DNA of 63,522 nt from a virus (Duplodnaviria; Caudoviricetes), in the IMG/VR virus record IMGVR_UViG_3300032234_000384, positions 1 through 63,522 of that record. The stretch is one strand, 5' to 3'. The notes below the pieces were generated by a model. It saw nothing but the letters and a program-made list of their open reading frames with translations, was not told where the DNA came from and did not search any database. The position numbers were made by a program, and so were the translations under genes. Each line of letters starts with the position of its first letter. Within the stretch, counting starts at the first letter, position 1. Below are positions 25,225 through 37,032 of the stretch, piece after piece.

Positions 25225-25299
25225 TGGTGCGACCGGGGAATTCCGACATCCCGACCAAGGGATTATGAGTCCCCTGCTCTACCTCTGAGCTACGGTCGC
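25225..25299 (-). tRNA. tRNA-CAT (Ile2 or Met)
   Basis: Cloverleaf, loop CTCATAA, CCA encoded, atypical T-loop. Confidence 0.8.
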
Positions 25300-25302
25300 A
25301 TC

Positions 25303-25384
25303 TGGTGCGGGTAGCCGGACTCGAACCAGCACGCCGAAGCGGGAGATTTTAAGTCTCCTGTGTCTACCATTCCACCATACCCGC
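25303..25384 (-). tRNA. tRNA-Leu(TAA)
   Basis: Cloverleaf with variable arm, CTTAAAA, CCA. Confidence 0.92.
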
Positions 25385-25387
25385 ATA

Positions 25388-25476
25388 TCCATTTTTAACC
25401 ACATTTAAACCGTTCTTCAGCGTTTAGTCGCTATCTCCCTTACTAATCGGGCGTAGGGTATGTGGTTAAAAATGGA
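25388..25476 (-). ncRNA. Long-terminal-stem ncRNA (family B)
   Basis: 17-bp perfect inverted repeat at 25388-25404 / 25460-25476 enclosing a structured loop. Confidence 0.55.
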
Positions 25477-25498
25477 CACCTTTCGGTGCCCATAGCCG

Positions 25499-26920
25499 TT
25501 ACAGCACTTTGTAACGGTCATCCATGATGGTCTTAAGCATCACAGATTCTGGTGTGAAGGTTTCAATGTCACCAGCAAGGAGTGGCTTAACCACGGCTGG
25601 AGAGAAACCAGACACCAGTGCAGTACCAGACTTGTCAAACTTCACAGGCGCATTGCCATATGAAGCGTTCAAGTTCCAGAATACAACCTTTGGAAGGGTG
25701 TAGCCTGCGGCTTCGTACTTACGTGCAATCATTTCGATTGCAGAGTCATCATGCTTGACACATTGGTCAAATTGCATGTCTGACAGAATCAACACCATTC
25801 CTGGCATATCTTCTTGTGCTACGTTACCTTTTACAGCAACGTCTAGGATTTTTGCAAAGGCCTTGTTCAGGTCAGTGTTCATATCCCAGTTGGACTTAAC
25901 CATTTGGTCAATCTTAGAATTGATACCACCCTTTAGGTGCATCAATTCTGGCTTACCAGAGAAGGTCAAGAATGTGTCCTTGAACGCACCCTTGTTCTTG
26001 TCAGCAAGGTACAATCCCAAAGAGACTGCAACTTCCAAACAGGTCAACTTACCAGTCTTGCCTGCGGTGCAGGTCATAGAACCAGATACGTCAACCAGAG
26101 GCAGAATGTTTGCATCACCAACATAGTTAGGCAATGCATTCCATTGTGCTTCAATCAAGTCCATTTCGGTCTTGTTGTATGTAACTCCATAGTTGGAGAT
26201 ACGACCCTTCAACACATCATATGGAAATACCGCAGATGCGTTAACCTTAACTTCAGGGTTATCACCCTTCACCAAAGATGCAACATATGCCGCATACTTT
26301 TCAGTGTTACGGTTGAAAGCCTTTTTGTAACGTGCAGACGCTACGGAAGGAACATGTGAGAAGTTAATGGAATCCCAGTCCTTTGCACACATGTTGGTTT
26401 CAACGACCTTGGTCATTTCGACCAAAGACTTACGGTAGAACTTTGGTGACATTCCGAAGAATGTACGGATTTCTGCCGCAATTGGACCTTGGCGAGGTGT
26501 CCACTTAGCCGCAAGTCCATTCTTTTCACGCAAAGCGTTACCGAGCATGGTGTATGCGGCTTCTTTCAGTGCCTTGGTCTTGAAGACAAACAAGTCATCC
26601 CAACGACCCAATTCTGGCACTTTAGCCAACAGAGCCTTAGCGGCTTCTGTATCAGTCTTTTCCAGATATACTAGGATATCACGGAAAAGTTGACGTTCAC
26701 CGGCACCACCACGTGCGTCACGTAGCCATGCGGCAACTCGTAGAGCCAATTCACGGTTCTCTGCCAAGGCAGCCGCAAATGCAGGCTTAATATCTTTTCC
26801 ACGGGATGCACCCGCATTGTAAAACAAATCTACCACCGCATTGGCAGTTGACTTGCGAGCCTTCATACCGTTTGTGGTACGGGCTTCTTGGTTCTTAACA
26901 GCTTCGACAAATGTTGACAT
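25499..26920 (-). CDS. DUF2828-type TROVE/Ro60-like protein with C-terminal vWA domain
   Basis: AAAAGGAG RBS; LRDARGGAGER, GRWDDL, AAKWTPR helical region; MIDAS DVSGSM and SDMQFD, VFWNL, SGFS. Confidence 0.8.
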   Translation of the reverse strand: MSTFVEAVKNQEARTTNGMKARKSTANAVVDLFYNAGASRGKDIKPAFAAALAENRELALRVAAWLRDARGGAGERQLFRDILVYLEKTDTEAAKALLAKVPELGRWDDLFVFKTKALKEAAYTMLGNALREKNGLAAKWTPRQGPIAAEIRTFFGMSPKFYRKSLVEMTKVVETNMCAKDWDSINFSHVPSVASARYKKAFNRNTEKYAAYVASLVKGDNPEVKVNASAVFPYDVLKGRISNYGVTYNKTEMDLIEAQWNALPNYVGDANILPLVDVSGSMTCTAGKTGKLTCLEVAVSLGLYLADKNKGAFKDTFLTFSGKPELMHLKGGINSKIDQMVKSNWDMNTDLNKAFAKILDVAVKGNVAQEDMPGMVLILSDMQFDQCVKHDDSAIEMIARKYEAAGYTLPKVVFWNLNASYGNAPVKFDKSGTALVSGFSPAVVKPLLAGDIETFTPESVMLKTIMDDRYKVL

Positions 26921-26939
26921 AATGAACTCCTTTTCAATC

Positions 26940-27060
26940 AACAGGTTAAACTTTTTGCATCCCCTATGCTACCATTACATTAGACACCCATTCGGGTGAG
27001 CCGGAATCGAACCGGTCTCGGGGTTTTCAGTTGCATTAAAATTGTTGCGGAACTTAACCT
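26940..27060 (-). ncRNA. Y-RNA-like RNA A1 containing a circularly permuted tRNA-Phe
   Basis: AGGTTAAG/TTTAACCT terminal stem, CCGCAA motif, then CTGAAAA, T-arm, closed acceptor stem, D-arm. Confidence 0.75.
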
Positions 27061-27068
27061 AAAAAAAC

Positions 27069-27168
27069 AACAGAATAGTTTTCTACTTTTTGATTTAAGT
27101 GAGAACTCGAAACTCACTATCTTATGATACGGGTATGAATCCGTGATAAGTGTTGCTGAAACTATTCT
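27069..27168 (-). ncRNA. Y-RNA-like RNA A2
   Basis: AGAATAG/CTATTCT stem, TTTCAGCAA; CAT-loop hairpin and T-arm-like hairpin. Confidence 0.7.
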
Positions 27169-27187
27169 AAAAATCTCCAAAAAAAAC

Positions 27188-27284
27188 AACAGAGTAGTTT
27201 GATTGCCACCTTGGCGATCACGCTAGTTTTGGTGCGTAACATAGGAATCGAACCTACAAATTTTGATTTTGCTGAACCTACTCT
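27188..27284 (-). ncRNA. Y-RNA-like RNA A3 with permuted tRNA domain
   Basis: AGAGTAG/CTACTCT stem, GTTCAGCAA; GTAGG-TTCGATT-CCTAT, GTTACGC-ACCA-loop-GCGTGAT, short D-arm. Confidence 0.75.
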
Positions 27285-27300
27285 AAAACTTTCAAAAAAT

Positions 27301-27522
27301 AACAGGATGGTCGGTTTGTATTTTAACTTGGTTCTTAAACCACAGAGTACCCTTACGGCAAATGCAACCCTCTGAAATCATATGGTTTACCATAATCTTT
27401 TCTGTCTTTCCAGAGTCCAATTTAGTTCAGGTTATTTCCCTAGCTTCGTAATTACACCTTACGGTGGTTCTCCTATAGAAGCACTTCAGCTTTAGTACGT
27501 TTAAACTTGCTGTATCCATCCT
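27301..27522 (-). ncRNA. Y-RNA-like RNA A4 (long)
   Basis: AGGATGG/CCATCCT stem, ATACAGCAA; ~200-nt multi-hairpin insert. Confidence 0.65.
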
Positions 27523-27550
27523 AAAAAACTTTAATAATCTCCATATAAAG

Positions 27551-27579
27551 ATTATATCACGTTAAGTGTAATTTGTCAA
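27551..27579 (-). promoter_or_regulatory. Consensus sigma70 promoter for the A4-A1 / DUF2828 operon
   Basis: TTGACA-17-TATAAT. Confidence 0.85.
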
Positions 27580-27611
27580 GTCTTTTTTAGCATTGTTGCC
27601 AAAAAACAACA

Positions 27612-27686
27612 TGGTGTCCTCAACAGGAATCGAACCTGTATCCAGAACTTAGGAGGTTCTTATTCTATCCGTTGAACTATAAGGAC
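27612..27686 (-). tRNA. tRNA-Arg(CCT)
   Basis: Cloverleaf, CTCCTAA, CCA. Confidence 0.9.
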
Positions 27687-27688
27687 GG

Positions 27689-27778
27689 TGGAGGAAGAAG
27701 GAGGAATTGAACCCCGACCAGCATCAGCCAGTCTTCCGCTTTCCAGGCGGACGTAGGAACCATCCTACTGCATCTTCC
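27689..27778 (-). tRNA. tRNA-Ser(GGA), apparent 8/4 fold
   Basis: CTGGAAA loop, long variable arm, 6-bp D stem, CCA. Confidence 0.8.
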
Positions 27779-27779
27779 G

Positions 27780-27856
27780 TGGTGCCTCAGGGGGGATTCG
27801 AGCCCCCAAAATCCAGTGTTTGAGACTGGCACGTATACCGATTCCGTCACCGAGGC
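27780..27856 (-). tRNA. tRNA-Leu(CAA), short variable loop
   Basis: CTCAAAC loop, CCA. Confidence 0.85.
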
Positions 27857-27857
27857 G

Positions 27858-28052
27858 TTATGTCATTTGATCTATGTTATTACCGATTTTTTGTGTCGAA
27901 TCTATTTGACCATTTTTCGTGTACGTTTGATACGTAAACTCTACCACATCTTTAATTTTTACTCCGGCATCATCAACAATGGTTTTCCTTTTTGTCGTGC
28001 GGATTAAATCGTAGTATATATGTGTTTGTGTTGATACAGAAGACACGTGCAT
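27858..28052 (-). CDS. Small hypothetical protein
   Basis: 64 aa, AAAGGAG RBS, fills the gap between tRNAs. Confidence 0.6.
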   Translation of the reverse strand: MHVSSVSTQTHIYYDLIRTTKRKTIVDDAGVKIKDVVEFTYQTYTKNGQIDSTQKIGNNIDQMT

Positions 28053-28068
28053 ATAGAAAACTCCTTTA

Positions 28069-28142
28069 TGGTGCTCTCAACAAGAATTGAACTTGTGTTT
28101 CACCCTTACCAAGGGTGTGTAATGCCATTATACTATGAGAGC
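28069..28142 (-). tRNA. tRNA-Thr(GGT)
   Basis: TTGGTAA loop, CCA. Confidence 0.9.
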
Positions 28143-28147
28143 GAAAT

Positions 28148-28275
28148 TGGTGGAGATGGTGGGATTCGAACCGCACACAAGAACTTTTACAGAGTTATAG
28201 CTTAGGTTGTTGCAGAACTTATCCTTTACAGGATAATTTTTTTGCTTTGCTATGCTACCATTACATCACATCTCC
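28148..28275 (-). ncRNA. tRNA-Tyr-like / Y-motif hybrid RNA A5
   Basis: GGAGATG/CATCTCC-ACCA acceptor, D-arm, inserted TTATCCT-GTAA-AGGATAA-GTTCTGCAA, CTGTAAA loop, T-arm. Confidence 0.75.
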
Positions 28276-28280
28276 AAAAT

Positions 28281-28355
28281 TGGTGGGGTGCCGCAGATTC
28301 AAACTGCGTTCTCTCGGCTTAAGAGGCCGGACTTCATCATCAAAGTTTGCTCCCC
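28281..28355 (-). tRNA. tRNA-Lys(CTT), atypical
   Basis: CTCTTAA loop, CCA; D-loop lacks GG. Confidence 0.75.
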
Positions 28356-28453
28356 ATATAGAAACACACTAACGAACCTGGTTGTGGGATTCGAACCCAC
28401 GTTTTCCCGTAGCACCAGCGGCACTGCTACTTACCGATCAATGTATTTCTATA
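28356..28453 (-). ncRNA. Long-terminal-stem ncRNA (family B) with internal T-arm
   Basis: TATAGAAATACATT/AGTGTGTTTCTATA stem; GTGGG-TTCGAAT-CCCAC inside. Confidence 0.6.
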
Positions 28454-28529
28454 TGGTGCGTCCTAGAGGGATCGAACCTCTTTCCACGGTGCTTCAAACC
28501 GTTGCTATGACCACATCAGCTAAAGACGC
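28454..28529 (-). tRNA. tRNA-Phe(GAA)
   Basis: TTGAAGC loop, CCA. Confidence 0.85.
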
Positions 28530-28581
28530 AAATGACACACTACTTATCTCATTGTACGCCGAGTGTCATGGCGATATTGAA

Positions 28582-28783
28582 TTTGTAAGTAGTTCCACCA
28601 CGTTATTGGAACCATTCAGCCGATTATACAAGTCCGGACGGCAGTCGGTACGCCACTTGGAATACTCGTCAGAGGAAACCCAAACGTTACTAAGATGGGA
28701 TACGAGCCCATACCTCTTTTTACACTGAAAGGTCCTTCGAAGTAACCTAGACAATGTGACTTTCTCTTGCTGACACTTACAAA
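28582..28783 (-). ncRNA. Probable divergent long member of the CAGCAA RNA family
   Basis: TTTGTAAGT/ACTTACAAA terminal stem followed by GTCAGCAA. Confidence 0.5.
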
Positions 28784-28786
28784 ACT

Positions 28787-28862
28787 TGGTACCTGGTGTT
28801 GGACTCGAACCAACATCGCTCTCCTTGTAAGGGAGACGTATCACCTCTCTACGCAACCAGGC
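28787..28862 (-). tRNA. tRNA-Val(TAC)
   Basis: CTTACAA loop, CCA. Confidence 0.88.
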
Positions 28863-28863
28863 A

Positions 28864-29106
28864 TTAATCTTCAAATACTGCAATCACATCATCAATGTGA
28901 ATGCGATACATTTCTTTCTCTATTTTATACGCTTTATTCCAATTTAGCAATAGTTCTTCACCAATCTTTACCGAATCAACGGAAGTGGCAACAACAATTG
29001 CACGATCCGGTTCCATTGAACTTTGTAAAATAATACCACCAGAAGAAACTTTCTCAGGTGCTTTTCGTTCAATGATAACACCATTATTCAATGGAACATA
29101 CGTCAT
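28864..29106 (-). CDS. groES: GroES-like co-chaperonin
   Basis: PL...VII, SSGGIIL, A.VVA, DDVIAV. Confidence 0.8.
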   Translation of the reverse strand: MTYVPLNNGVIIERKAPEKVSSGGIILQSSMEPDRAIVVATSVDSVKIGEELLLNWNKAYKIEKEMYRIHIDDVIAVFED

Positions 29107-29127
29107 AAAATATCCTTTTTAAAAAAT

Positions 29128-29202
29128 TGGGGTAACTAATGGGTATCGATCCCATGCTACGACTTTCACAGAGTCGGGTGCTACCATTACACCATAGCCA
29201 CC
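29128..29202 (-). tRNA. tRNA-His(GTG)
   Basis: CTGTGAA loop, G-1/C73, CCA. Confidence 0.88.
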
Positions 29203-29210
29203 ATAAAAAC

Positions 29211-29284
29211 TGGAGCGGGTAGAGAGAATCGAACTCTCACATTAACCTTGGCAAGGTCATAAGCTACCATTACATCATACCCGC
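29211..29284 (-). tRNA. tRNA-Gly(GCC)
   Basis: TTGCCAA loop, TCCA. Confidence 0.9.
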
Positions 29285-29290
29285 AACAAC

Positions 29291-29776
29291 TTAATCCGCC
29301 ATTTCTTGTTCTGCAAGAATCCGCTTTAGACGGTCTGCACAGAAAGAAGCGGCTGGTGCATCTGGTTTAACCATTGGTGTCATGTTACATGTACCTTTGA
29401 TATAACCAATTGCTTGTTGAACAACACAAGAAGAACCGTGTTCATCAGACTTGTTAAGGTCTAGGTGAACTTCAACATGACGGTCTTCTAGCACATCTTG
29501 CATTTCCTGAAACAACTCGGAAACTTTATATACTTCTGTCATCAGACGCATAGCAGGCTTGGACTTCTTGTGGTCATAATCCAATTCACGGTCAACAAAT
29601 CCGAAGATTTTACAACCGTGGCGACCATCGATATGAACAACGACAGCCAAAGCGTAATCTGCATACCAAACACCGTTAACACGCATACGTTCGGAATCTG
29701 CACCAAGGTAAACACGTGTGTCTGGACCTTGAGCCATAATAAAGTCTTTTACTTTTTGGATATCGAAATTTTTCAT
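29291..29776 (-). CDS. RNase H-like YkuK-family protein
   Basis: YLGADS, RL..E, EVHLDLN, KP.A.AAS..AD. Confidence 0.75.
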   Translation of the reverse strand: MKNFDIQKVKDFIMAQGPDTRVYLGADSERMRVNGVWYADYALAVVVHIDGRHGCKIFGFVDRELDYDHKKSKPAMRLMTEVYKVSELFQEMQDVLEDRHVEVHLDLNKSDEHGSSCVVQQAIGYIKGTCNMTPMVKPDAPAASFCADRLKRILAEQEMAD

Positions 29777-29791
29777 ATCATTTCCTTAAAT

Positions 29792-29865
29792 TGGCATCCC
29801 GCCAGGGACTCGAACCCCGACCAACAGTTTTGGAGACTGGTATGCTGCCATTACACTAGCGAGAT
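29792..29865 (-). tRNA. tRNA-Trp(CCA)
   Basis: CTCCAAA loop, GCCA. Confidence 0.9.
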
Positions 29866-29873
29866 ATTATTTT

Positions 29874-30047
29874 TCAACTACTTTTTTCAGAATTGGAATT
29901 AGCAAGTCTTACAAACTCCTCATCTTCAATTTTTTGATCTTCTTCTTCTTTCAAATCACGACTAAAGATTGCATCCCAACGTTTTGAGTATTCGTCATTT
30001 GCAATGCTGAATGGTCGTGGTCTTGAACCTTTTCCACCATCACTCAT
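29874..30047 (-). CDS. Small hypothetical protein
   Basis: MSDGGKGSRPRP...WDAIF; AAGGA RBS. Confidence 0.6.
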   Translation of the reverse strand: MSDGGKGSRPRPFSIANDEYSKRWDAIFSRDLKEEEDQKIEDEEFVRLANSNSEKSS

Positions 30048-30174
30048 ATAATCTTCCTTTAATGTCTTTTTGTTGAGCCTTGCGTTCTGTTTTCCAGAAC
30101 ACACGTTTAAAATCTCTTAGGTGTTTCCACCACTGTGGAGCACCAGTCAGATTGCCTTTTTTAACATTAGCCAT
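30040..30174 (-). CDS. Small basic hypothetical protein (44 aa, absent from ORF track)
   Basis: AGGAG RBS; MANVKKGNLTGAPQWWKHLRDFKRVFWKTER. Confidence 0.55.
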   Translation of the reverse strand: MANVKKGNLTGAPQWWKHLRDFKRVFWKTERKAQQKDIKGRLYE

Positions 30175-30191
30175 TTGGAACTCCTAAAAAT

Positions 30192-30266
30192 TGGCCGGTC
30201 CTGAGAGAATCAAACTCCCACTTCTAGGTTCGTAGCCTAGTGTAATATTCATTTTACTAAGGACCG
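30192..30266 (-). tRNA. tRNA-Arg(ACG)
   Basis: CTACGAA loop, GCCA. Confidence 0.85.
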
Positions 30267-30269
30267 AAT

Positions 30270-30344
30270 TGGTGGTGCTAGAAGGTACCGAGCCTTCCTC
30301 ATCGGCTTATGAAACCGTTACGCATCCGTCTACGTCATAGCACC
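30270..30344 (-). tRNA. tRNA-Met(CAT), atypical T-loop
   Basis: TTCATAA loop, ACCA. Confidence 0.75.
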
Positions 30345-30447
30345 ATATAGAAACACACTGATGTTTTGAGGCTCTTAAACTAGGCACGTGGACTTAATTT
30401 GCCAAATGCCACGGACTTCCCGGTCCTGATCTCAATGTGTTTTTATA
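30345..30447 (-). ncRNA. Long-terminal-stem ncRNA (family B)
   Basis: TATAAAAACACATTGA/TCAGTGTGTTTCTATA stem, near-identical to the ends of 28356-28453. Confidence 0.6.
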
Positions 30448-30522
30448 TGGTGGAATCACGGGGAATCGAACCCCGAACTGTAACTTGCAAGGCTACTGCG
30501 TTCCCAATTACGCCATGACCCC
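30448..30522 (-). tRNA. tRNA-Ala(TGC)
   Basis: CTTGCAA loop, G3-U70, ACCA. Confidence 0.92.
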
Positions 30523-30528
30523 ATATAC

Positions 30529-30591
30529 AACAGAATAGTTTTTGCGTTTTCAATTACAAGTTGAATGCTTTATATTTGCTGAACCTATTCT
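30529..30591 (-). ncRNA. Y-RNA-like RNA A6 displaying a Thr(TGT) anticodon arm
   Basis: AGAATAG/CTATTCT, GTTCAGCAA; TTCAA-CTTGTAA-TTGAA. Confidence 0.72.
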
Positions 30592-30596
30592 AAATC

Positions 30597-30755
30597 TTAC
30601 TTCTTGCTTGAAGGCTGACGGATATCAGACTTCAAAATATCAACGAAACTTTTAATAACCGATCCACGCTTATGTGCATCAAGTTCCGATGCGGCCAAAC
30701 GTTTCACACTCTTAGGCACTTTTACTGCCTTTGCATCATAACCACGACAAGTCAT
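30597..30755 (-). CDS. Small basic hypothetical protein (52 aa, absent from ORF track)
   Basis: AAGGAG RBS; MTCRGYDAKAVKVPKSVKRLAA. Confidence 0.55.
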   Translation of the reverse strand: MTCRGYDAKAVKVPKSVKRLAASELDAHKRGSVIKSFVDILKSDIRQPSSKK

Positions 30756-30776
30756 AAAAACTCCTTTTAATAAAAA

Positions 30777-30851
30777 TGGCTCCAGTGGCAGGGATCGAAC
30801 CTACGACCAATTGATTAACAGTCAACTGCACTACCGCTGTGCTACACTGGA
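30777..30851 (-). tRNA. tRNA-Asn(GTT)
   Basis: CTGTTAA loop, GCCA. Confidence 0.92.
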
Positions 30852-30859
30852 ATAAAAAC

Positions 30860-30925
30860 AACAGGATGATTTTTGTCGCTAGACAACCAAAAAGTTTAGC
30901 TAATTTTATTTGCTGTACTCATCCT
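30860..30925 (-). ncRNA. Y-RNA-like RNA A7
   Basis: AGGATGA/TCATCCT, GTACAGCAA; hairpin with TTTTGGT loop. Confidence 0.68.
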
Positions 30926-30931
30926 AAAAAC

Positions 30932-31005
30932 TGGTCTCGATGGCAAGAATCGAACTTGCGCCACATGCTCCCAAAGCACGGATGATACCATTTCACCACA
31001 CCGAG
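30932..31005 (-). tRNA. tRNA-Pro(TGG)
   Basis: TTTGGGA loop, ACCA. Confidence 0.9.
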
Positions 31006-31010
31006 AAAAC

Positions 31011-31076
31011 TGGAGCAGTCACTACGATTCCCACGTAGATGATGGGTGGACCCCATCACGGTTAATATCCGACTGC
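31011..31076 (-). ncRNA. Minimised tRNA-Gly-like RNA
   Basis: GCAGTC/GACTGC-TCCA acceptor, GGTCCAC loop, non-canonical D and T loops; 66 nt. Confidence 0.6.
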
Positions 31077-31084
31077 ATAAAAAC

Positions 31085-31158
31085 TGGAGCGGAGTGAGAG
31101 AATCGAACTCTCAACAACAGATTGGAAATCTGTAGTTTTACCATTAAACTAACCCCGC
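31085..31158 (-). tRNA. tRNA-Gly(TCC)
   Basis: TTTCCAA loop, TCCA. Confidence 0.92.
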
Positions 31159-31166
31159 AAAATACT

Positions 31167-31240
31167 TGGTGCCCCATGACAGAATCGAACTGCCGTAACC
31201 GCGTTACAAAGGCGGTGTAATACCATTATACTAATAGGGC
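31167..31240 (-). tRNA. tRNA-Thr(TGT)
   Basis: TTTGTAA loop, ACCA. Confidence 0.88.
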
Positions 31241-31245
31241 AAAAT

Positions 31246-31319
31246 TGGGAGCAGGTGACAGATTCGAACTGCCGATGCACCTGGCTTATGAGACCGGTGT
31301 GGTGACCACCCTACCTGCA
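31246..31319 (-). tRNA. tRNA-CAT with truncated D-arm (initiator-like 1:72 mismatch)
   Basis: CTCATAA loop, T-arm, CCA; D region only GGTGGTCACC. Confidence 0.6.
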
Positions 31320-31325
31320 AAACTT

Positions 31326-31354
31326 ATTATAACATACTTTATATATGTTGGCAA
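31326..31354 (-). promoter_or_regulatory. Sigma70-type promoter
   Basis: TTGCCA-17-TATAAT with TGn extension. Confidence 0.7.
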
Positions 31355-31355
31355 C

Positions 31356-31443
31356 TGGTGGAGCCTGAAGGAATCGAACCATCCGCCAACCACCCCTCAA
31401 TTAAAGGCAACGGATTTACAGTCCGCTGAGAGGAACAGGCTCC
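31356..31443 (-). tRNA. tRNA-Tyr(GTA) lacking a normal D-arm
   Basis: GCGGA-CTGTAAA-TCCGT, T-arm, ACCA; 10-nt D region and 25-nt variable region. Confidence 0.65.
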
Positions 31444-31451
31444 AAAAATAC

Positions 31452-31511
31452 AACAGAATCCGCTTTTAGTTTCATTTTCAGTGAAAGTTTTTTATTTGCT
31501 GAATGGATTCT
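31452..31511 (-). ncRNA. Y-RNA-like RNA A8 displaying a Phe(GAA) anticodon arm
   Basis: AGAATCC/GGATTCT, ATTCAGCAA; TTTCA-CTGAAAA-TGAAA. Confidence 0.72.
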
Positions 31512-31517
31512 AAAACT

Positions 31518-31591
31518 TGGTCCTCTCGACAAGAATTGAACTTGTGATAACCGCTTATCAAGCGGACGTTATACCATTTAACTACAAGAGG
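31518..31591 (-). tRNA. tRNA-Ile(GAT)
   Basis: TTGATAA loop, ACCA. Confidence 0.88.
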
Positions 31592-31600
31592 AAAACTAAC

Positions 31601-31675
31601 TGGCGGTCCTAAGGGGTAACGATCCCCTTCTTTTGGCGTGACAAGCCAACGTGCGTCCATGAACACTTTAGAACC
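31601..31675 (-). tRNA. tRNA-Asp(GTC)
   Basis: TTGTCAC loop, GCCA. Confidence 0.85.
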
Positions 31676-31682
31676 TAAAACA

Positions 31683-31758
31683 TGGTGCCCTAGGAGAGAC
31701 TCGAACTCTCAGAACCTGGTTTCTAAGACCAGTACGTATACCATTCCGTCACCAGGGC
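31683..31758 (-). tRNA. tRNA-Leu(TAG), short variable loop
   Basis: CTTAGAA loop, ACCA. Confidence 0.88.
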
Positions 31759-31768
31759 AAAAATCATT

Positions 31769-31842
31769 TGGTAGGGCTGGAGAGAATCGAACTCTCGTTG
31801 ACCGGTTAAAAGCCGGATATTCTGCCATTGAATTACAACCCC
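31769..31842 (-). tRNA. tRNA-Lys(TTT)
   Basis: CTTTTAA loop, ACCA. Confidence 0.9.
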
Positions 31843-31847
31843 ATACT

Positions 31848-32000
31848 ACCATTTGTTTAGTGTTATCGTGCCCATTTGCCAACAAAGGTGCTTCCTCTGG
31901 CAAGCGACTAGCGGTTATATTAGGACCTGTTCCTCGCACAGTTAGGCCCGCATAGCTATAGCGTCCTATAGCGATACCCTGATAACACTAAACAAATGGT
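31848..32000 (-). ncRNA. Long-terminal-stem ncRNA (family B-like)
   Basis: 20-bp perfect inverted repeat ACCATTTGTTTAGTGTTATC enclosing a GC-rich multi-hairpin core. Confidence 0.6.
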
Positions 32001-32071
32001 ACACCGTACGGGTAACGATCCCGTCTAGTCACCTTGAAAGGGTGATGACCTCACCTGAAGTCGAACGGTGT
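31997..32071 (-). tRNA. tRNA-Glu(TTC)
   Basis: CTTTCAA loop, ACCA. Confidence 0.85.
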
Positions 32072-32077
32072 ACAAAA

Positions 32078-32183
32078 AATTACACTTAACTTTTTAAAGA
32101 ACATTTGATTGATTTCTCAATTCATGGATGAATTATATCACAACCAGAATCTTTGTCAACCATGTTGTTGTAATTTAACAACA
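32078..32183 (-). promoter_or_regulatory. rrn-like promoter with boxB-boxA leader and upstream palindrome
   Basis: TTGACA-16-TATAAT (32159-32132); ATTGA-GAAA-TCAAT; TGTTCTTTAAAAA; TGTTG-N8-CAACA. Confidence 0.7.
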
Positions 32184-32191
32184 ACTAAATT

Positions 32192-32267
32192 TGGAGTCGG
32201 TAACAGGATTCGAACCTGCATGTAACGGATTTGCAATCCGCTCCCTAGCCTTTCGGGTCACACCGAC
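32192..32267 (-). tRNA. tRNA-Cys(GCA)
   Basis: TTGCAAA loop, TCCA. Confidence 0.9.
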
Positions 32268-32455
32268 ATATCTTTCTTGCGAGATATCCATCCATTATAC
32301 AACGGATCTTTTACCTCGTCAACACCAAACTTACCAACAATTTCAAAGTCCGGACCCTTGATGGTCACAAACTCATTCATATGTTTAGCAAGATTCATTG
32401 CTTCGGCAAGTGTAAGAACCTTGAACGATTCTTCTTTTCCTATCACTTTAAACAT
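32258..32455 (-). CDS. Small hypothetical protein
   Basis: AAGGTGAG RBS; FVTI...FEIVGKFGVD. Confidence 0.55.
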   Translation of the reverse strand: MFKVIGKEESFKVLTLAEAMNLAKHMNEFVTIKGPDFEIVGKFGVDEVKDPLYNGWISRKKDMSV

Positions 32456-32469
32456 ACTCACCTTTCATT

Positions 32470-32561
32470 TGGTACCTCGACTGAGAATCGAACTCAGATG
32501 AACCAATTATCTGTTGCTTACGGGATATAAATCCGCCGTTTTACCATTAAACTACCGAGGC
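32470..32561 (-). tRNA. tRNA-Ile(TAT) with an extra arm
   Basis: TTTATAT loop; extra hairpin AAGCAA-CAGATAA-TTGGTT; ACCA. Confidence 0.7.
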
Positions 32562-32562
32562 A

Positions 32563-32654
32563 TGGTGGTGAGTGTGGGATTTGAACCCACGGACCCAATT
32601 TCTTGAGCCAACACCTTAGCAGGGTGCCGATTTAAACCACTCATCCAACTCACC
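32563..32654 (-). tRNA. tRNA-Ser(GCT)
   Basis: CTGCTAA loop, long variable arm. Confidence 0.9.
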
Positions 32655-32662
32655 ATATTAAT

Positions 32663-32749
32663 TGGAGGAAGGTAACAGAATCGAACTGTCACCCCGTCAA
32701 GGATGGACCGGATTTCAAGTCCAGTTAGCTTCCAAAGCATCTACCTTCC
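32663..32749 (-). tRNA. tRNA-Ser(TGA)
   Basis: CTTGAAA loop, long variable arm, TCCA. Confidence 0.82.
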
Positions 32750-32751
32750 AA

Positions 32752-33165
32752 TTATGTTCCACGATAATACTTTGCCCTAGGTCTTCCTTGTTTCTTGTTT
32801 GCACCTTTCCAGGTTGCAGTCAATGAGTGACAATTTGGACATAAAAGTTTTAGATTATCTTCTTTGTTGTTGGTGTAATCACCATCAACATGTTCTAATT
32901 CTAATGGTATTTTGTCAGTAAATATGTTTGTTTTAGACCAACCACATTCACAACATTTGTTTTCATACTTCTCAAAAAGATAACGGCGTATATGATATGA
33001 TGTTGCGGTTTTACCTCGCATTCCATCATGTTCGTCGTTTTTCCATTGTTTGATGAATTCTTTATATTGATAGTCATTTTGACATTTAACATCACAATAT
33101 TTTTTATTCTGTGATGGATAAGCATCAAATTCTTTATTGCAACATAAACACTTATAAGTTTCCAT
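32752..33165 (-). CDS. HNH endonuclease
   Basis: CxxC pairs, LELEHVDG...N...NL.LLCPNCHS. Confidence 0.85.
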   Translation of the reverse strand: METYKCLCCNKEFDAYPSQNKKYCDVKCQNDYQYKEFIKQWKNDEHDGMRGKTATSYHIRRYLFEKYENKCCECGWSKTNIFTDKIPLELEHVDGDYTNNKEDNLKLLCPNCHSLTATWKGANKKQGRPRAKYYRGT

Positions 33166-33220
33166 AAAAATCTCCTTCAATATTATTTATACCGATAGTG
33201 ATTTATACAGTCGCTCATTA

Positions 33221-33317
33221 CCATATTAAAACACATTACCTTCACTCACTTACGATTGACGTAACCAGCGGAAGTTAATGACCTGCTCATGTGTCACTAT
33301 AACATGTTTTAATATGG
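33221..33317 (-). ncRNA. Long-terminal-stem ncRNA (family B)
   Basis: CCATATTAAAACATGTTA/TAATGTGTTTTAATATGG. Confidence 0.55.
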
Positions 33318-33388
33318 CACCCGAGGTAGGAATCGAACCTACAATAACAGAGTCAAAGTCTGGTGTGTTACCACTACACTACTCGGGA
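33315..33388 (-). tRNA. tRNA-Gln(TTG)
   Basis: CTTTGAC loop, GCCA. Confidence 0.9.
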
Positions 33389-33391
33389 TCA

Positions 33392-33497
33392 AATTACACT
33401 TAACTTTTTAAAGAACGTTGTTGATTTCTCAACTGAAGATACGTATTGTACAGGCTTTTTAAACTTTGTCAACACATGTTGTTGTAAGATTACAACA
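33392..33497 (-). promoter_or_regulatory. rrn-like promoter with boxB-boxA leader and upstream palindrome
   Basis: TTGACA-16-TACAAT (33472-33445); GTTGA-GAAA-TCAAC; CGTTCTTTAAAAA; TGTTG-N8-CAACA. Confidence 0.7.
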
Positions 33498-33502
33498 TCT
33501 CC

Positions 33503-33538
33503 AAACAAAAACCCTCAGATTTTTTAGGTCTGAGGGTT
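33503..33538 (-). terminator. Intrinsic terminator of the leader/attenuator
   Basis: AACCCTCAGA-loop-TCTGAGGGTT followed by a U-tract. Confidence 0.8.
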
Positions 33539-33565
33539 GTGAAACTTTGGTTTACTTTTATAGAT

Positions 33566-33682
33566 TTACCGTGTTCCACTACCCCCTACGTGCGCCCATG
33601 ACTGATTATCGCTACCAATAAACGGTGTGCGATACTCAACCTTTGAGGCTGTTATGGAGAGGGGTGTGTATAAATTTGTCAT
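33566..33682 (-). CDS. Leaderless 38-aa attenuator leader peptide
   Basis: MTNLYTPLSITASKVEYRTPFIGSDNQSWAHVGGSGTR; ATG 6 nt after the -10 box; 3' end overlaps the antiterminator strand. Confidence 0.65.
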   Translation of the reverse strand: MTNLYTPLSITASKVEYRTPFIGSDNQSWAHVGGSGTR

Positions 33683-33688
33683 AGTGCT

Positions 33689-33717
33689 ATTATATAGGCA
33701 TTTTTTTCTTTTGGCAA
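33689..33717 (-). promoter_or_regulatory. Sigma70-type promoter
   Basis: TTGCCA-17-TATAAT. Confidence 0.75.
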
Positions 33718-33736
33718 CACATTTTTAAAAATATTT

Positions 33737-34462
33737 TTAAATTTCTTTCCACTTACCATGTTCGATAGGTACCCAATGTTGTGGGTCACGGAGAATTTCA
33801 AACGTTGTCGGTGGCCATGTGATACCGTGGCTTGCAAGATGCGTTTGCACCAAATGTTCTGGATTGTATTTGACACCACGATTATACATCTGGTCAAAAT
33901 AATCTACTGCATCGGTATAAATTGACATGGCATGTGGAAGTCCAATGGCAAATTGGTCATTGAAGTTTGGTTCATAACCATATCGCTGATTGTTTGGAAT
34001 GTATATTGTACCTGGTGATTCCAATAAACATCTGTGTGCCAATTTCAAATCAATCGGCTCAGATAAACCTAAATCTGTACGTGAACGAATTACCAAATCG
34101 TATGCGTCAAGTTCTCTACGCCACATATCACAATACTGGAGGCACTTGTATTGTTGCCAAACGTTTGCTGGTGTACTGTTATATGGTTCATACTCTTTAG
34201 GTATTTCTCCTAATGCAGAAGGATCAAGAACCTCAATGAATTTGATTTTGTACCAAGGTGGTAGATGTGCTTGGAGTTTGTCTCTGACTTGACCGGCAGA
34301 TTTTAAATCACACCAATTCTCGGAGAGTTTTGGGTCCCATCCAAAATCTCTACGCCAAAATACGATGTAAACATCGATTGCTGATTTGGTTAGATTTTGT
34401 AATTGCGAATCAAAGTCTGCTGAGAATCGGGGATTACCCGTTAGTAGTAATGCGGTTTTCAT
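33737..34462 (-). CDS. Glycosyltransferase-like protein
   Basis: ALLLTGNPR, YDLVIRSRTD, NDQFA; paralog of 8293 and 9442. Confidence 0.6.
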   Translation of the reverse strand: MKTALLLTGNPRFSADFDSQLQNLTKSAIDVYIVFWRRDFGWDPKLSENWCDLKSAGQVRDKLQAHLPPWYKIKFIEVLDPSALGEIPKEYEPYNSTPANVWQQYKCLQYCDMWRRELDAYDLVIRSRTDLGLSEPIDLKLAHRCLLESPGTIYIPNNQRYGYEPNFNDQFAIGLPHAMSIYTDAVDYFDQMYNRGVKYNPEHLVQTHLASHGITWPPTTFEILRDPQHWVPIEHGKWKEI

Positions 34463-34973
34463 CGTTCACATGTTTCCATTTTATATCTTCTTTAACAATC
34501 GGAGCATCTGGATTAGATATACCCTCAAAAATATTCCAAAGTTCCTCTTTGACGGCAAATTTTGTCCAGAGTCCAGTTTCGAGACTGTATGCTTCTAGTT
34601 CCCAGGGGTGGTGATAGTAATCGATTGAATCGGCATCAACTGTTATACCTTTCCATTTCGAAAGTGTTTCATTTGTTTCACCATTAACGAATTGTTTTAT
34701 ATGCACCATTTCGTGTGCAAGTGTTTTGAATATCTCTGCGGCACCAATCCAAGGATGAATTTCAATTAAAAATTCTCTTGCTTTGTTTGATGCATTATAT
34801 TCTTCTATTGATGCTAGAGCCCAAACTTGCAGTTTGTCGTCAAATTTTATTGTGAGGAAAATGTTATCTCTTAGTCTTTTTGAAGGTATAAGATTTTCAG
34901 CATAAAAATCTACTGCCCTTTTCACGAAGGGTTTAAAATCTTTGTCTGGACAATTTATGACCTTGACTTGCAT
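34434..34973 (-). CDS. Zinc metallopeptidase-like protein
   Basis: TLAHEMVH..Q, PWELEA. Confidence 0.75.
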   Translation of the reverse strand: MQVKVINCPDKDFKPFVKRAVDFYAENLIPSKRLRDNIFLTIKFDDKLQVWALASIEEYNASNKAREFLIEIHPWIGAAEIFKTLAHEMVHIKQFVNGETNETLSKWKGITVDADSIDYYHHPWELEAYSLETGLWTKFAVKEELWNIFEGISNPDAPIVKEDIKWKHVNDENRITTNG

Positions 34974-35027
34974 TTTGACTCCAGTTTCTATTCATATTTA
35001 TCTACTGGAAAATTTCATATTATGAAA

Positions 35028-35459
35028 TTAAACTTGAGTCACCAGAACTCCTGCTTTCTCCAGGAATTGAAGGCCATCATCATTACGATAAGAATTACGA
35101 TAATACACAGAACTGATACCACTTTGATAAACAAGTTTGGCGCAATCAAGACAAGGGGCATGAGTAATAAAGATAGAAGCACCGTCACCAGATTCAGTTG
35201 ATCTAGCCAACTTAGCAATAGCGTTTGTTTCTGCATGTAGCACCTCCGGCTTTGTTACCAATGTTCGTTTACCTTTAAGATCAAGTCCAAAATCATTTTC
35301 ACAAGTATTGTCCCATCCAGATGGCATTCCATTGTAACCAATAGAAATGATGCGATCATCTTTTACGACAATAGCACCAACATGAAGTCTCACAGCAGAT
35401 GAAAGTTCCGCAAATGTTTCTGCGGTTTTCATATATGCTTCAATAAATTTTTGTTTCAT
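35028..35459 (-). CDS. cd: dCMP deaminase
   Basis: GYNG, HAE.NAI, PCLDC. Confidence 0.92.
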   Translation of the reverse strand: MKQKFIEAYMKTAETFAELSSAVRLHVGAIVVKDDRIISIGYNGMPSGWDNTCENDFGLDLKGKRTLVTKPEVLHAETNAIAKLARSTESGDGASIFITHAPCLDCAKLVYQSGISSVYYRNSYRNDDGLQFLEKAGVLVTQV

Positions 35460-35869
35460 TTAGTTTGTTCGGCTAGTATCTTATAACCCTTACCTGTCGG
35501 ATGAACACCATCAGCACTCATGTTATTGGTAGGTCTTGGAATTACAACGTCACCATATTCCTTGGCAAGTGTCATTATAGCTTCATGCGGAATAGGCTTA
35601 CGATCTTTTCCTGGATCAATCCAAAAGACACGTTTACCTTTAATGGCTTCACGCATCTTTCTCAGTTCTTGTTCCGTTTTCACGCCTTTGTGGTCATTCG
35701 CACCAAGACTGATGATGATTGTTTCGTATGATTTTGTAGTTGCAGAAGAAAGATAATCTTTATTCCAAGCCCAACTATTCCAACCATTTTTAGAATATGA
35801 TACGCATTCTTTTCGGTACATTGCTGTACCAACCGCAATGCTGTCACCAATCACCATACAATCAATCAT
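35456..35869 (-). CDS. SGNH/GDSL hydrolase-like protein
   Basis: GDSI, LGAND, DGVHP. Confidence 0.8.
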   Translation of the reverse strand: MIDCMVIGDSIAVGTAMYRKECVSYSKNGWNSWAWNKDYLSSATTKSYETIIISLGANDHKGVKTEQELRKMREAIKGKRVFWIDPGKDRKPIPHEAIMTLAKEYGDVVIPRPTNNMSADGVHPTGKGYKILAEQTK

Positions 35870-36000
35870 AGCGTTTCGTATTCGTCTTTACCAACACCAC
35901 ATTCTGGACAAGTAAAATCATCAGGCAACGTATTCCACGCACCTTCGGTTGCTTCATCGTGTTCGTGGCCACAGACCACACATACATGTACTTCACTCAT
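35866..36000 (-). CDS. Rubredoxin (44 aa, absent from ORF track)
   Basis: CVVCG...LPDDFTCPECGVGK. Confidence 0.88.
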   Translation of the reverse strand: MSEVHVCVVCGHEHDEATEGAWNTLPDDFTCPECGVGKDEYETL

Positions 36001-36461
36001 TATAATGTCTCCCAAATTTCTTTATATGCATATGCATGACGTTCTTCAACTTTCTTCAAAGCATTGAAACGCTTTTCAGCTTTTTCTAGGATCGCTTTGA
36101 ATGCTTGAGCATGTTCATTAGATTCGCGACCTTGTTCATTGAATTCTTTTACGGCTTCAATGTTTTGTTCAGCTTTGGCAATTCGTTCAAACTGTGGATA
36201 CATTTCTGTAAACTCATAGGTCTCACCTTCGATGGCAAGTTCTAAGCATTCTTTAGTAGTTGGTTTACCAACCAACAATTCCAAATGACCCCATGCATGT
36301 TTGATTTCTTGGTCCGCAGTGTGTTCAAAATGTTTTGCAACATCTTCAAAACCCTCAGCACGTGCAAGTTTCGCAAAATAGCGGTACTTGATGTGTGCCA
36401 TCGACTCACCGGCCAATGCACTCTCAAGATTTTTTAACGTAACAGAATTTTGTTCTTTCAT
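36000..36461 (-). CDS. Rubrerythrin-family protein
   Basis: AGESMA...Y, E..HA, GETYE...MYP, E..HA. Confidence 0.88.
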   Translation of the reverse strand: MKEQNSVTLKNLESALAGESMAHIKYRYFAKLARAEGFEDVAKHFEHTADQEIKHAWGHLELLVGKPTTKECLELAIEGETYEFTEMYPQFERIAKAEQNIEAVKEFNEQGRESNEHAQAFKAILEKAEKRFNALKKVEERHAYAYKEIWETL

Positions 36462-36477
36462 ATGGTTCCTTATTAAT

Positions 36478-36552
36478 TGGTCCGGCGTGCAGGAATCGAA
36501 CCCACATTCAAGGTGTAGAAGACCTTTGTATTGTCCATTATACGAACGCCGG
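36478..36552 (-). tRNA. tRNA-Arg(TCT)
   Basis: CTTCTAC loop, ACCA. Confidence 0.88.
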
Positions 36553-36557
36553 AGTTT

Positions 36558-36839
36558 TTATTTAGTGTAATCAATCTTATGTATAAGTTTATCTTCCATC
36601 CAGTAAGAACAGAGTTCAGACTTATCATCTTTCAAACGATCAATCATTTTAGCAACTTCTTCACGTGTAGTCTCACGACCCTCGATGATTTGCTCACCGA
36701 GGAACTTCTGAGTTACTTCATCAAATTCACGATTATGCTCAGTCATTACCAATTCGTCATATGCATGTTCAAGGCTTTCAGCCTCAATAATATACTTATT
36801 ACGAAAAGAAACCAACACATCAACTTCAAATAATGCCAT
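36558..36839 (-). CDS. Hypothetical protein
   Basis: ORF in operon context. Confidence 0.6.
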   Translation of the reverse strand: MALFEVDVLVSFRNKYIIEAESLEHAYDELVMTEHNREFDEVTQKFLGEQIIEGRETTREEVAKMIDRLKDDKSELCSYWMEDKLIHKIDYTK

Positions 36840-37032
36840 AATCAAATTCTTTCAATAGTTTAGTAATCACATCTTCACGTTTAACACCCATCACTTCGTC
36901 CAACATACGTTTCAACAAATCAATTTGACCTTGTTTCCACTTACGGTCTTCTAAACTAAAAGACGAATTCATAATATCGGTATGCCAAAGGATTTCAAAC
37001 TCAAGATAATTGAGAATAACATCCTTCGACAT
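36826..37032 (-). CDS. Hypothetical protein
   Basis: ORF in operon context, GAGG RBS. Confidence 0.5.
   Translation of the reverse strand: MSKDVILNYLEFEILWHTDIMNSSFSLEDRKWKQGQIDLLKRMLDEVMGVKREDVITKLLKEFDYGII

Follow-up and report, generated by a model that had tools for sequence, protein, structure and literature searches.

A candidate ribosome-dependent transcription attenuator with a leader spanning nearly all amino acids at the head of a viral tRNA island

At the head of the tRNA island encoded on the minus strand of the window (the whole stretch of DNA analysed here, a 63.5-kb viral contig fragment with an estimated completeness of 38%), a promoter, a short leader open reading frame (ORF), an intrinsic terminator and a helix that competes with this terminator form a compact module. 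The best explanation that we can offer is that this module is a ribosome-dependent transcription attenuator in which a leader spanning all or nearly all amino acids senses tRNA supply; on the comparative sequence evidence, we assign this interpretation a probability of about 0.6. The features listed in a preliminary description of this DNA were all recovered at the same positions, on the minus strand; those on which the argument turns are the following.

33689..33717, minus strand: promoter P1, with the -35 element TTGCCA (33717-33712), a 17-nt spacer and the -10 element TATAAT (33694-33689); 11 of 12 consensus positions match, and the promoter is kept in relatives
33566..33682, minus strand: leader ORF with a predicted leaderless ATG, 38 sense codons and a TAA stop (33568-33566); 19 amino-acid types
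33573..33586, minus strand: R2, the final sense codons and predicted 5' strand of the antiterminator, GGGGGUAGUGGAAC; recognised by duplex energy, covariation and stop geometry
33532..33545, minus strand: R3, the predicted 3' strand of the antiterminator, GUUUCACAACCCUC, the last 5 nt of which are the start of the terminator 5' arm; recognised by covariation
33503..33536, minus strand: intrinsic terminator with an 8-bp stem, a 9-nt loop and a T5GT3 tract; recognised by sequence, relatives and covariation
33315..33388, minus strand: tRNA-Gln(TTG), the first gene of the island; found by ARAGORN

In the proposed mechanism, the P1 transcript would begin at or beside the leader AUG. A fast ribosome would reach the stop codon and cover R2, the terminator would form, and the transcript would end after about 180 nt. 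If the ribosome were delayed upstream of R2, the more stable R2:R3 helix would form first, and the polymerase would read into tRNA-Gln and the array. The leader presents every or nearly every amino acid one to a few times, along with codons for about 25 of the 29 anticodon species of the phage, so that the delay could come from scarcity of almost any charged tRNA. The element would be a general gauge of tRNA supply or translation capacity, with feedback onto transcription of the tRNA genes. Translation of the leader, the site at which transcription starts, the sign and magnitude of the response and its physiological trigger are what we infer here, the termination and read-through response from the established logic of leader-peptide attenuation. 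Candidate triggers, on which we can only speculate, are host tRNA cleavage by defence nucleases, host shut-off and starvation. A link to anticodon-nuclease defence, equally speculative, would fit the literature: recent work, in the parts of the papers that are available, ties phage tRNAs to escape from tRNA-cleaving defences (PMC10264068, PMC11555353, PMC11464382). We entertain with some reserve a further version, namely, that the module is a viral tRNA homeostat in which a pan-amino-acid, pan-isoacceptor test peptide is translated and any codon not decoded in time opens the terminator and raises phage tRNA synthesis; that such a homeostat would respond, for instance, to tRNA cleavage by anticodon nucleases or to host shut-off is a similarly tentative proposal.

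Relatives of the module, which come from uncultured T4-like freshwater phages, were collected through the neighbouring gene for a 241-aa protein (first set, 21 loci), through DNA patterns of the ORF core (second set, 46, 50 and 59 loci) and, without regard to the leader, through a gene for a 161-aa protein located about 4 kb inside the island (independent set, 80 loci). The core-pattern searches could, by design, retrieve synonymous variants only, so that the unbiased evidence on the core comes from the 19-20 genomes chosen via the neighbouring gene; one of the 59 loci (L073) is an unrelated large ORF. In the independent set, L034, already present in an earlier set, was excluded, leaving 79 new loci to scan, among which 41 contain a plus-strand tRNA-Gln preceded by at least 460 nt; these represent 33 distinct upstream sequences. 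Leaders were called here by the presence of a -10 element, the start geometry and a stop codon 40-90 nt before a T tract, and a single candidate frame was found in 31 of the 33 sequences. The two without a candidate frame belong to a lineage with a rearranged array (L104/L109/L111) and to L140, whose contig starts within the array. The position of the module is itself conserved: tRNA-Gln(TTG) and the array lie downstream of it in all 32 loci examined, and the upstream gene varies by lineage.

Comparison of these sequences indicates that the leader is conserved as an ORF and that its start signals are kept. Frame 0 is open in all 35 distinct ORF sequences of the first two sets, compared to 2 of 35 for frame +1 and 0 of 35 for frame +2, with the off-frame stops located in the variable flanks as well as in the core, and wherever the alignments show indels within the ORF, these are blocks comprising 3, 6 or 15 nt. 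In the window, the start ATG (33682-33680) follows the P1 -10 element after 6 nt (AGCACT). Among the relatives, two forms of the start are found. In the first, an ATG lies exactly 6 nt after the -10 element, which leaves no space for a Shine-Dalgarno sequence, so that translation would be leaderless; in the second, a longer 5' end carries GGAG (or GGAA/GAAAG), followed after 5-7 nt by an in-frame GTG, TTG or ATG. We take the leader to be translated, deducing both the leaderless start and the transcription start from these signals.

Within the ORF, all variation in the 14-codon core is synonymous among the genomes chosen via the neighbouring gene; the changes seen in the closest family include all four bases in CCN, AGC/AGT, GGT/GGC, ACA/ACG and CAG/CAA. 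Replacements in the core appear in the wider sets, namely, Ser to Pro at the penultimate residue in many relatives and Glu to Gly at the first residue in L045/L068. Even synonymous variation is scarcer in the core: among codons for invariant residues, 3 of 13 vary there, compared to 121 of 172 in the neighbouring gene of these 19-20 genomes (Fisher p=0.001), so that the nucleotides are constrained at the RNA level too. This additional constraint, together with a promoter and a terminator of its own and a strongly structured P1 transcript (-55 kcal/mol, z -3.77, with 0 of 200 shuffles as good), would suit a structured non-coding small RNA in which the open frame is incidental. Such an RNA would not account for the exclusive openness of frame 0 over the variable flanks, for the retention of start signals in two different forms or for the confinement of amino-acid completeness to frame 0 (see below), and a cmscan search of positions 25000-37000 at E<=1 gave no match to a T-box or any other Rfam family in 33389-33740; we regard this explanation as very improbable.

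The leader peptide of the window (MTNLYTPLSITASKVEYRTPFIGSDNQSWAHVGGSGTR) consists of 19 amino-acid types, with only Cys missing, encoded by 31 distinct codons, as originally counted. The GC-rich codons that had been singled out as unusual for this phage are indeed so: a relative synonymous codon usage below 0.5 is found for 10 of 36 codons, whereas windows of 38 codons from the genes of this phage contain 3.1 such codons on average (P=0.0026). Taken alone, a leader with 19 types is only mildly unusual (the probability of at least 19 is 0.074 in shuffled ORFs and 0.024 in windows of phage proteins), and the significance of amino-acid completeness comes, by sequence comparison, from the relatives. 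The 30 distinct peptides of the independent set, which are 32-43 aa long, include 25 with all 20 types, 4 with 19 and 1 with 18; when the sets are pooled, 37 of the 53 distinct peptides have 20 types, 13 have 19, 2 have 18 and 1 has 17. Examples of complete leaders are MSLIHKPFSLQPEYRTINCADASWPTGFCVEKDC (34 aa), MLSLSFKSQHEYRTISSPNCADMPWLVDRGFV (32 aa) and MMNKHSFKQPTRINSWLANYCLEDSRVIGESGKGVSEGRDN. Clustering below 50% identity gives 10 groups of peptides, in 7 of which the representative is complete. Thus, the pattern that the preliminary description had proposed to look for, codon diversity combined with a divergent peptide ahead of tRNA arrays, is what the relatives display: pairwise identity goes down to 3-49%, and most leaders keep all 20 types.

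Several controls bear on this result. All 20 types are present in 0.04-0.46% of the 32-41-residue windows from 1057 long ORFs of these phages and, after nucleotide shuffling of the leader ORFs, in 0.13-1.2% of cases. When read in its two alternative frames, the same DNA encodes 15.8 types on average and 18 at most, with no complete peptide, and shuffling within 12-nt blocks yields a mean of 16.5 types. Permutation of alignment columns, which retains positional conservation, leads to an expectation of 4.5 complete peptides out of 53 and 0.54 complete representatives out of 10, and none of 3000 permutations reached the observed 37 and 7. The frame and permutation controls imply that completeness is a property of the leader frame, rather than a by-product of RNA composition or simply inherited sequence; these tests are not phylogeny-aware, and counts are given instead of a formal probability. 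Some residues appear to have been relocated: the L074 lineage, which lacks the Glu of the core, has a Glu in the tail, and His is found either after the Trp or at residues 3-5.

The leaders also touch, on average, 24.6 of the 29 anticodon species of the window, compared to 17.6 ± 2.2 in 36-codon windows of genes, none of which reaches this value (0 of 2376); gene windows with at least 19 amino-acid types (n=27) touch 20.7. This comparison is relevant to the alternative that the same attenuator reads overall translation capacity (ribosome availability, elongation rate, coupling of transcription and translation, or ribosome-targeting stress), rather than tRNA supply, with completeness ensuring a fair sample of translation. 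All the evidence on the architecture of the module applies equally to this alternative, and there are precedents for it, as far as the available parts of the two reports go, in the Bacillus subtilis bmrCD attenuator, which answers general ribosome stalling (PMC4191407), and in a cellular tRNA array of Anabaena that is induced by translational stress (PMC10272220). It leaves unexplained the tight completeness across peptides with 3-49% identity and the excess of anticodon species over gene windows with at least 19 types, and the genes that would be regulated are tRNAs for all 20 amino acids. We view it as clearly the less likely of the two accounts.

The second line of evidence, which concerns the attenuator as such, comes from the two helices at the end of the leader. 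As described previously, R2 (GGGGGTAGTGGAAC, 33586-33573) pairs with R3 (GTTTCACAACCCTC, 33545-33532) at 13 of 14 positions, including 2 G-U pairs, with a single A.A mismatch. The terminator likewise withstood inspection: the 5' arm CCCTCAGA (33536-33529) and the 3' arm TCTGAGGG (33519-33512) enclose a 9-nt loop and are followed by T5GT3 (33511-33503); the consensus terminator scan, which limits the loop to 8 nt, does not list it for that reason. The predicted energy of the R2:R3 duplex in the window is -20.3 kcal/mol, against -9.5 ± 2.4 kcal/mol for shuffled R2, and none of 300 shuffles reached the native value. In 28 of the 29 variants the energy is -13.8 kcal/mol or lower, with 0-5 of 300 shuffles reaching it, and for L010, where the ORF is 6 codons longer, a window fitted to the ORF end gives -20.2 kcal/mol. 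The predicted antiterminator is more stable than the terminator hairpin in all 29. The 31 parsed sequences of the independent set behave in the same way (-11.2 to -22.7 kcal/mol, 0-5 of 100 shuffles reaching these energies), and the terminator is present in all of them; in the first two sets, each of the 38 distinct stretches of 340 nt has one too.

Because R2 and R3 shift in register between lineages, RNAalifold applied to the full 37-sequence MAFFT alignment detected the central hairpin of the ORF only, and both helices were therefore assigned manually. This was done on A3, in which 29 distinct sequences are aligned by MAFFT independently of any structure. For the 14 pairs of the antiterminator, 86.4% of the cells are paired; double changes affect 5 pairs and 23 cells, and none of 500 shuffles scores as high; when the partner is moved by 1-3 columns, 26-54% of the cells are paired. 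For the 8 pairs of the terminator, 84.1% are paired, with 25 double-change cells (0 of 500 shuffles). The compensatory changes are readily seen in the R2/R3 pairs of different lineages (GGGGGUAGUG / CACAACCCUC, UGGGUUUUGUG / CACAAAACCCA, GGGUCUUGU / ACAAGACCC, GGGGUUUUUGAA / UUCAAAAACCUC and GGGUUAGGUGA / UCACCAAACCC). Column 88 of A3, which pairs with column 20 in one helix or column 113 in the other, covaries with both (G-C-G, U-A-U, C-G-U), a pattern that we interpret as the signature of two mutually exclusive structures, both under selection. The pairing whose conservation in relatives had been named beforehand as a test is thus maintained through compensatory changes, in overlap with a terminator that is maintained too, so that both comparative tests proposed in advance, this one and that of codon diversity, support the attenuator interpretation.

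The stop codon of the leader is closely tied to this switch. The 3' end of R2 lies -1 to +3 nt from the stop codon in 27 of 29 variants (the exceptions are L010 and L059), and in all 31 parsed sequences of the independent set the distance from the stop to R2 is -3 to +10 nt and that to the T tract 52-64 nt. On completing the leader, a ribosome would therefore sit on R2. This geometry has no evident reason if the locus is simply an early gene that encodes a small protein acting in trans, has a promoter and a terminator of its own, and uses R2:R3 only as a stabilising structure at the mRNA 3' end. Cassettes composed of a promoter, an ORF and a terminator are frequent in the early regions of phages, the ORF has coding signatures, and the 14-residue core is invariant in the closest family, all of which would be expected of such a gene. 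The peptide nevertheless drifts to 3-49% identity while the RNA switch and completeness persist, the tail residues vary freely while R2:R3 pairing is restored, and the constraint on synonymous sites goes beyond coding. Moreover, the leader peptide has no Pfam or PHROG family, and searches of two very large protein collections for leader-like proteins returned only a few short ORFs (P0002, P0003, P0005) and one 19-residue match; the 44-aa ORF of L010, used as a query, matched 2 short proteins, and an all-against-all search of representative proteins produced 3 matches, of which one covers 19 residues within a protein of 1239 aa. A folded small protein was considered and set aside after AlphaFold2 modelling with the family alignment, which was uninformative and gave no confident fold (mean predicted local distance difference test score 59.8, predicted template modelling score 0.15). 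We therefore consider a small-protein gene unlikely. At the nucleotide level, a blastn search with 401 nt against 50,697 phage records found no match, and a degenerate core pattern had 0 matches in cellular genome contigs.

As a separate observation, the 1239-aa protein (P0004) matches 19 leader residues with an E value of 1.8e-7, and the motif PFIGSDNQ is also found inside the large unrelated ORF of L073 (minus strand, around position 4590 of the reversed locus); both are probably due to chance or to a common short motif.

The invariance of EYRTPFIGSDNQSW in the closest family, where only synonymous changes occur, could also be a sign of nascent-peptide arrest of the TnaC or SpeFL kind, in which the ribosome is stalled by a specific peptide sequence and the stall may depend on a small molecule. 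In the independent set, this core is replaced by EYRTINCADASW and EYRSISTPNCADMPW, or by unrelated sequences in L105, L152, L155 and L134, and the architecture persists; the conserved E-Y-R and D codons, furthermore, coincide with the base of the central hairpin. Given the divergence of the leader peptide, arrest appears to be quite improbable, and a switch that depends on the passage of the ribosome, rather than on a particular peptide, remains the preferred interpretation.

Two additional structures were predicted within the leader.

33604..33637, minus strand: central hairpin in the ORF, in the codons for EYRTPFIGSDN; predicted by RNAalifold and present in divergent lineages
33656..33665, minus strand: R1, a doubtful candidate anti-antiterminator, the C/U-rich 5' segment ACCCCUCUCC; minimum free energy (MFE) pairing with the G-run of R2

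The 12 pairs of the central hairpin are kept in all 37 sequences of the close family (RNAalifold), with one compensatory change from A-U to G-C, and a hairpin with another apical sequence is found in all 30 distinct divergent sequences (mean z -2.17; z<-2 in 19 of 30). By extension from the trp/his paradigm, this hairpin may be an RNA polymerase pause site.

The effect of ribosome position on the terminator was modelled with equilibrium estimates. With a 28-nt footprint masked, the terminator, otherwise predicted at a probability of 0.91-0.99 (0.51 in L010), falls below 0.5 in 9 of 10 representatives, with L059 as the exception; the drop occurs with the ribosomal P site at codons ~2-12. When ribosome-spanning pairs are forbidden, the predicted probability is low in many relatives with the A site at codons 2 to ~26 and sharply returns to ~1 at or just past the Trp codon. 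The original suggestion that stalling at almost any codon would lead to read-through is too broad for the simple footprint model: there, the final 8-13 codons overlap or adjoin R2, and stalling at them should promote termination.

This and several other observations weigh against the interpretation of the module as a sensor of tRNA supply. With the standard footprint, 15-20 amino-acid types (mean 16.8) are left upstream of R2 coverage, and Trp, Val, His and Gly are often confined to the tail, in which stalling would be expected to promote termination. Either the boundary as set here is off by a few nucleotides or these residues are not sensed; the G/U-rich sequence of R2 necessarily encodes Gly, Val, Cys, Phe and Trp codons. 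The sequence of the window itself is predicted to be only a partial switch, with an equilibrium terminator probability of 0.3-0.7 over much of the ORF. Swapping of N- and C-terminal flanks within the close family did not lower completeness (0.66 vs 0.67) and hence gave no signal of compensation; unlike this chimera test, the column permutation on the wider set is significant. In MFE folds, the R2 G-run pairs with a C/U-rich stretch early in the ORF, resembling a classical 1:2 element. This R1:R2 pairing is no better than that with shuffled 5' regions, and in RNAalifold only 4 bp are kept, with one double change, so the role of R1 as an anti-antiterminator is doubtful. The L104/L109/L111 lineage, in which the array is rearranged and tRNA-Gln is the 13th gene, has no leader/attenuator module at the head of the array, and the one cultured relative that was checked, Stenotrophomonas phage DLP_6, contains no analogue: the head of its 37-tRNA array has a 56-aa annotated ORF without a terminator. 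The head of the L104/L109/L111 array, about 500 nt upstream of tRNA-Arg(TCT) (for example, L104 5480-6003), carries a promoter and a 72-codon ORF with no terminator.

A further difficulty is posed by a second, near-consensus promoter past the terminator in the window and in most relatives, next to which a conserved hairpin lies.

33445..33472, minus strand: promoter P2, TTGACA, a 16-nt spacer and TACAAT; 11 of 12 consensus positions match, and the promoter is kept in most relatives
33480..33497, minus strand: conserved hairpin or inverted repeat TGTTGTAATCTTACAACA, located past the T tract of the terminator and ahead of the -35 element of P2; recognised in the alignment

In the window and most relatives, where P2 is located downstream of the terminator, read-through would at most supplement the transcription of the tRNAs. 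The caveat that a second promoter also feeds the island, raised in the preliminary description, holds for these genomes and is weakened by the L152/L153/L157 lineage. There, P1 matches the consensus at 12 of 12 positions, the leader and the terminator are present (L152 6854-7500), and the consensus scan found no promoter-like site from the terminator to tRNA-Gln, Ser, Ser and Cys; from sequence, read-through from P1 appears to be the sole sigma-70-type route to these first four tRNAs. The consensus scan yields 30 promoter-like sites against 28.6 expected, so that the promoter count alone carries no weight. In the TGTTGTAATCTTACAACA element, the stem TGTTG/CAACA is kept and the loops vary, with a few paired changes (L038, L059); as RNA, this hairpin is made only by read-through from P1, and as DNA, it could be an operator for P2.

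The source of the window is, by its gene content, an uncultured T4-like phage with no close cultured relative. It encodes representatives of T4-like myovirus families, namely, UvsX, the gp43-type polymerase, clamp loader, SbcCD-like nuclease, major head, portal and sheath proteins, and the closest cultured match of its major capsid protein shows 63% identity. ARAGORN detects 29 tRNA genes in the minus-strand island, and Rfam adds tRNA-Tyr(GTA) at 31444-31359 and another tRNA at 25299-25228 (52.8 bits). The sequence at 31359-31444 (minus strand), missed by ARAGORN, has the anticodon loop CUGUAAA and a long variable arm, scores 33.5 bits as tRNA-Sec-like in Rfam, which is under the gathering score, and occupies the position of tRNA-Tyr(GTA) in relatives; it is probably tRNA-Tyr. 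With this Rfam-only tRNA-Tyr counted in, the island covers all 20 amino acids.

An HNH endonuclease ORF (142 aa, 32752-33180, minus strand) is inserted between tRNA-Gln and the remaining array, and the spacing from tRNA-Gln to the next tRNA varies widely among relatives. Immediately 5' of tRNA-Gln lies a conserved box, GTTCTTTAAAAAGTTAAGTGTAATTT (33389-33416, minus strand), that is repeated deeper in the islands of relatives (for example, L009 5303-5335) and may serve tRNA precursors as a common 5' leader or as a signal for processing. The island also encodes a 480-aa protein (25499-26941, minus strand) with DUF2828 and DUF7788 domains, annotated as 'RNA-binding protein' in PHROG 850. Sub-threshold Rfam matches in the gaps between tRNAs, in the regions 28148-28275 and 31454-31510 (minus strand), to transfer-messenger RNA (18.3 bits) and Dictyostelium class I RNA (33.2 bits), indicate that the island may contain further small RNAs.

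Why phages carry large sets of tRNAs and how these are controlled has long been debated. As a tRNA homeostat, the module would be the first attenuator known to sense the entire tRNA pool instead of one amino acid, as well as the first described case of regulatory logic in phage tRNA arrays. If the proposed mechanism is correct, it would supply a concrete and directly testable regulatory model for viral tRNA islands and a compact, portable genetic part of ~200 nt that reports a shortage of any charged tRNA. The composition rule itself, all 20 amino acids in 32-43 codons despite drift to under 25% identity, is an unusual form of selection on a coding sequence. In the full-text literature within reach, which excludes subscription-only papers and supplements, we found no phage tRNA array described as being headed by an attenuator or a leader peptide, and no leader peptide selected for every amino acid.

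Among known regulators, the attenuators of amino-acid operons (trp, his, thr, ilv, pheA and leu) are close counterparts of the module: in both, a short leader ORF precedes an intrinsic terminator, one strand is common to the terminator and the antiterminator helix, the stop codon is placed such that the finishing ribosome would mask an antiterminator strand, and a hairpin within the leader is a possible pause site. Unlike these attenuators, the module has no run of codons for a single amino acid (in the window leader, 5 is the highest count for any amino acid, and runs are absent), most relatives have all 20 amino acids in 32-43 codons, the regulated genes would be tRNAs rather than biosynthetic enzymes, the element is viral, many of the starts are predicted to be leaderless, and a 1:2-type anti-antiterminator is unsupported. 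The element thus has four structural features of the trp/his class and lacks the codon cluster that defines it. In the arrest peptides SecM, TnaC and SpeFL, the peptide sequence is what is conserved; unlike these, the leader has a core that is invariant in the closest family only, and other cores occur across the clade at 3-49% identity.

The T-box riboswitch resembles the module as a transcription attenuator that couples tRNA charging to read-through. It binds one uncharged tRNA directly, without translation, whereas the leader element would read many tRNAs via the ribosome; identity with a T-box was rejected, given that no Rfam family matches the site at E<=1. With the B. subtilis bmrCD attenuator, the module would share the dependence of read-through on ribosome speed in the leader, rather than on one amino acid; unlike the module, attenuators of that type control resistance or export genes and answer antibiotics, and the available part of the report (PMC4191407) describes no rule of amino-acid composition. 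The closest idea that we found in print, to the extent that the paper is available, is the stress-induced trn operon of Anabaena, a large accessory array of 26 tRNA genes that is controlled by the repressor TrcR and expressed more strongly under translational stress (PMC10272220). That operon is cellular and is governed by a ribbon-helix-helix repressor at the promoter, with no leader peptide or terminator switch described in the accessible part of the paper. Against this background, the sensing rule of the module appears to be new, within a known type of regulator.

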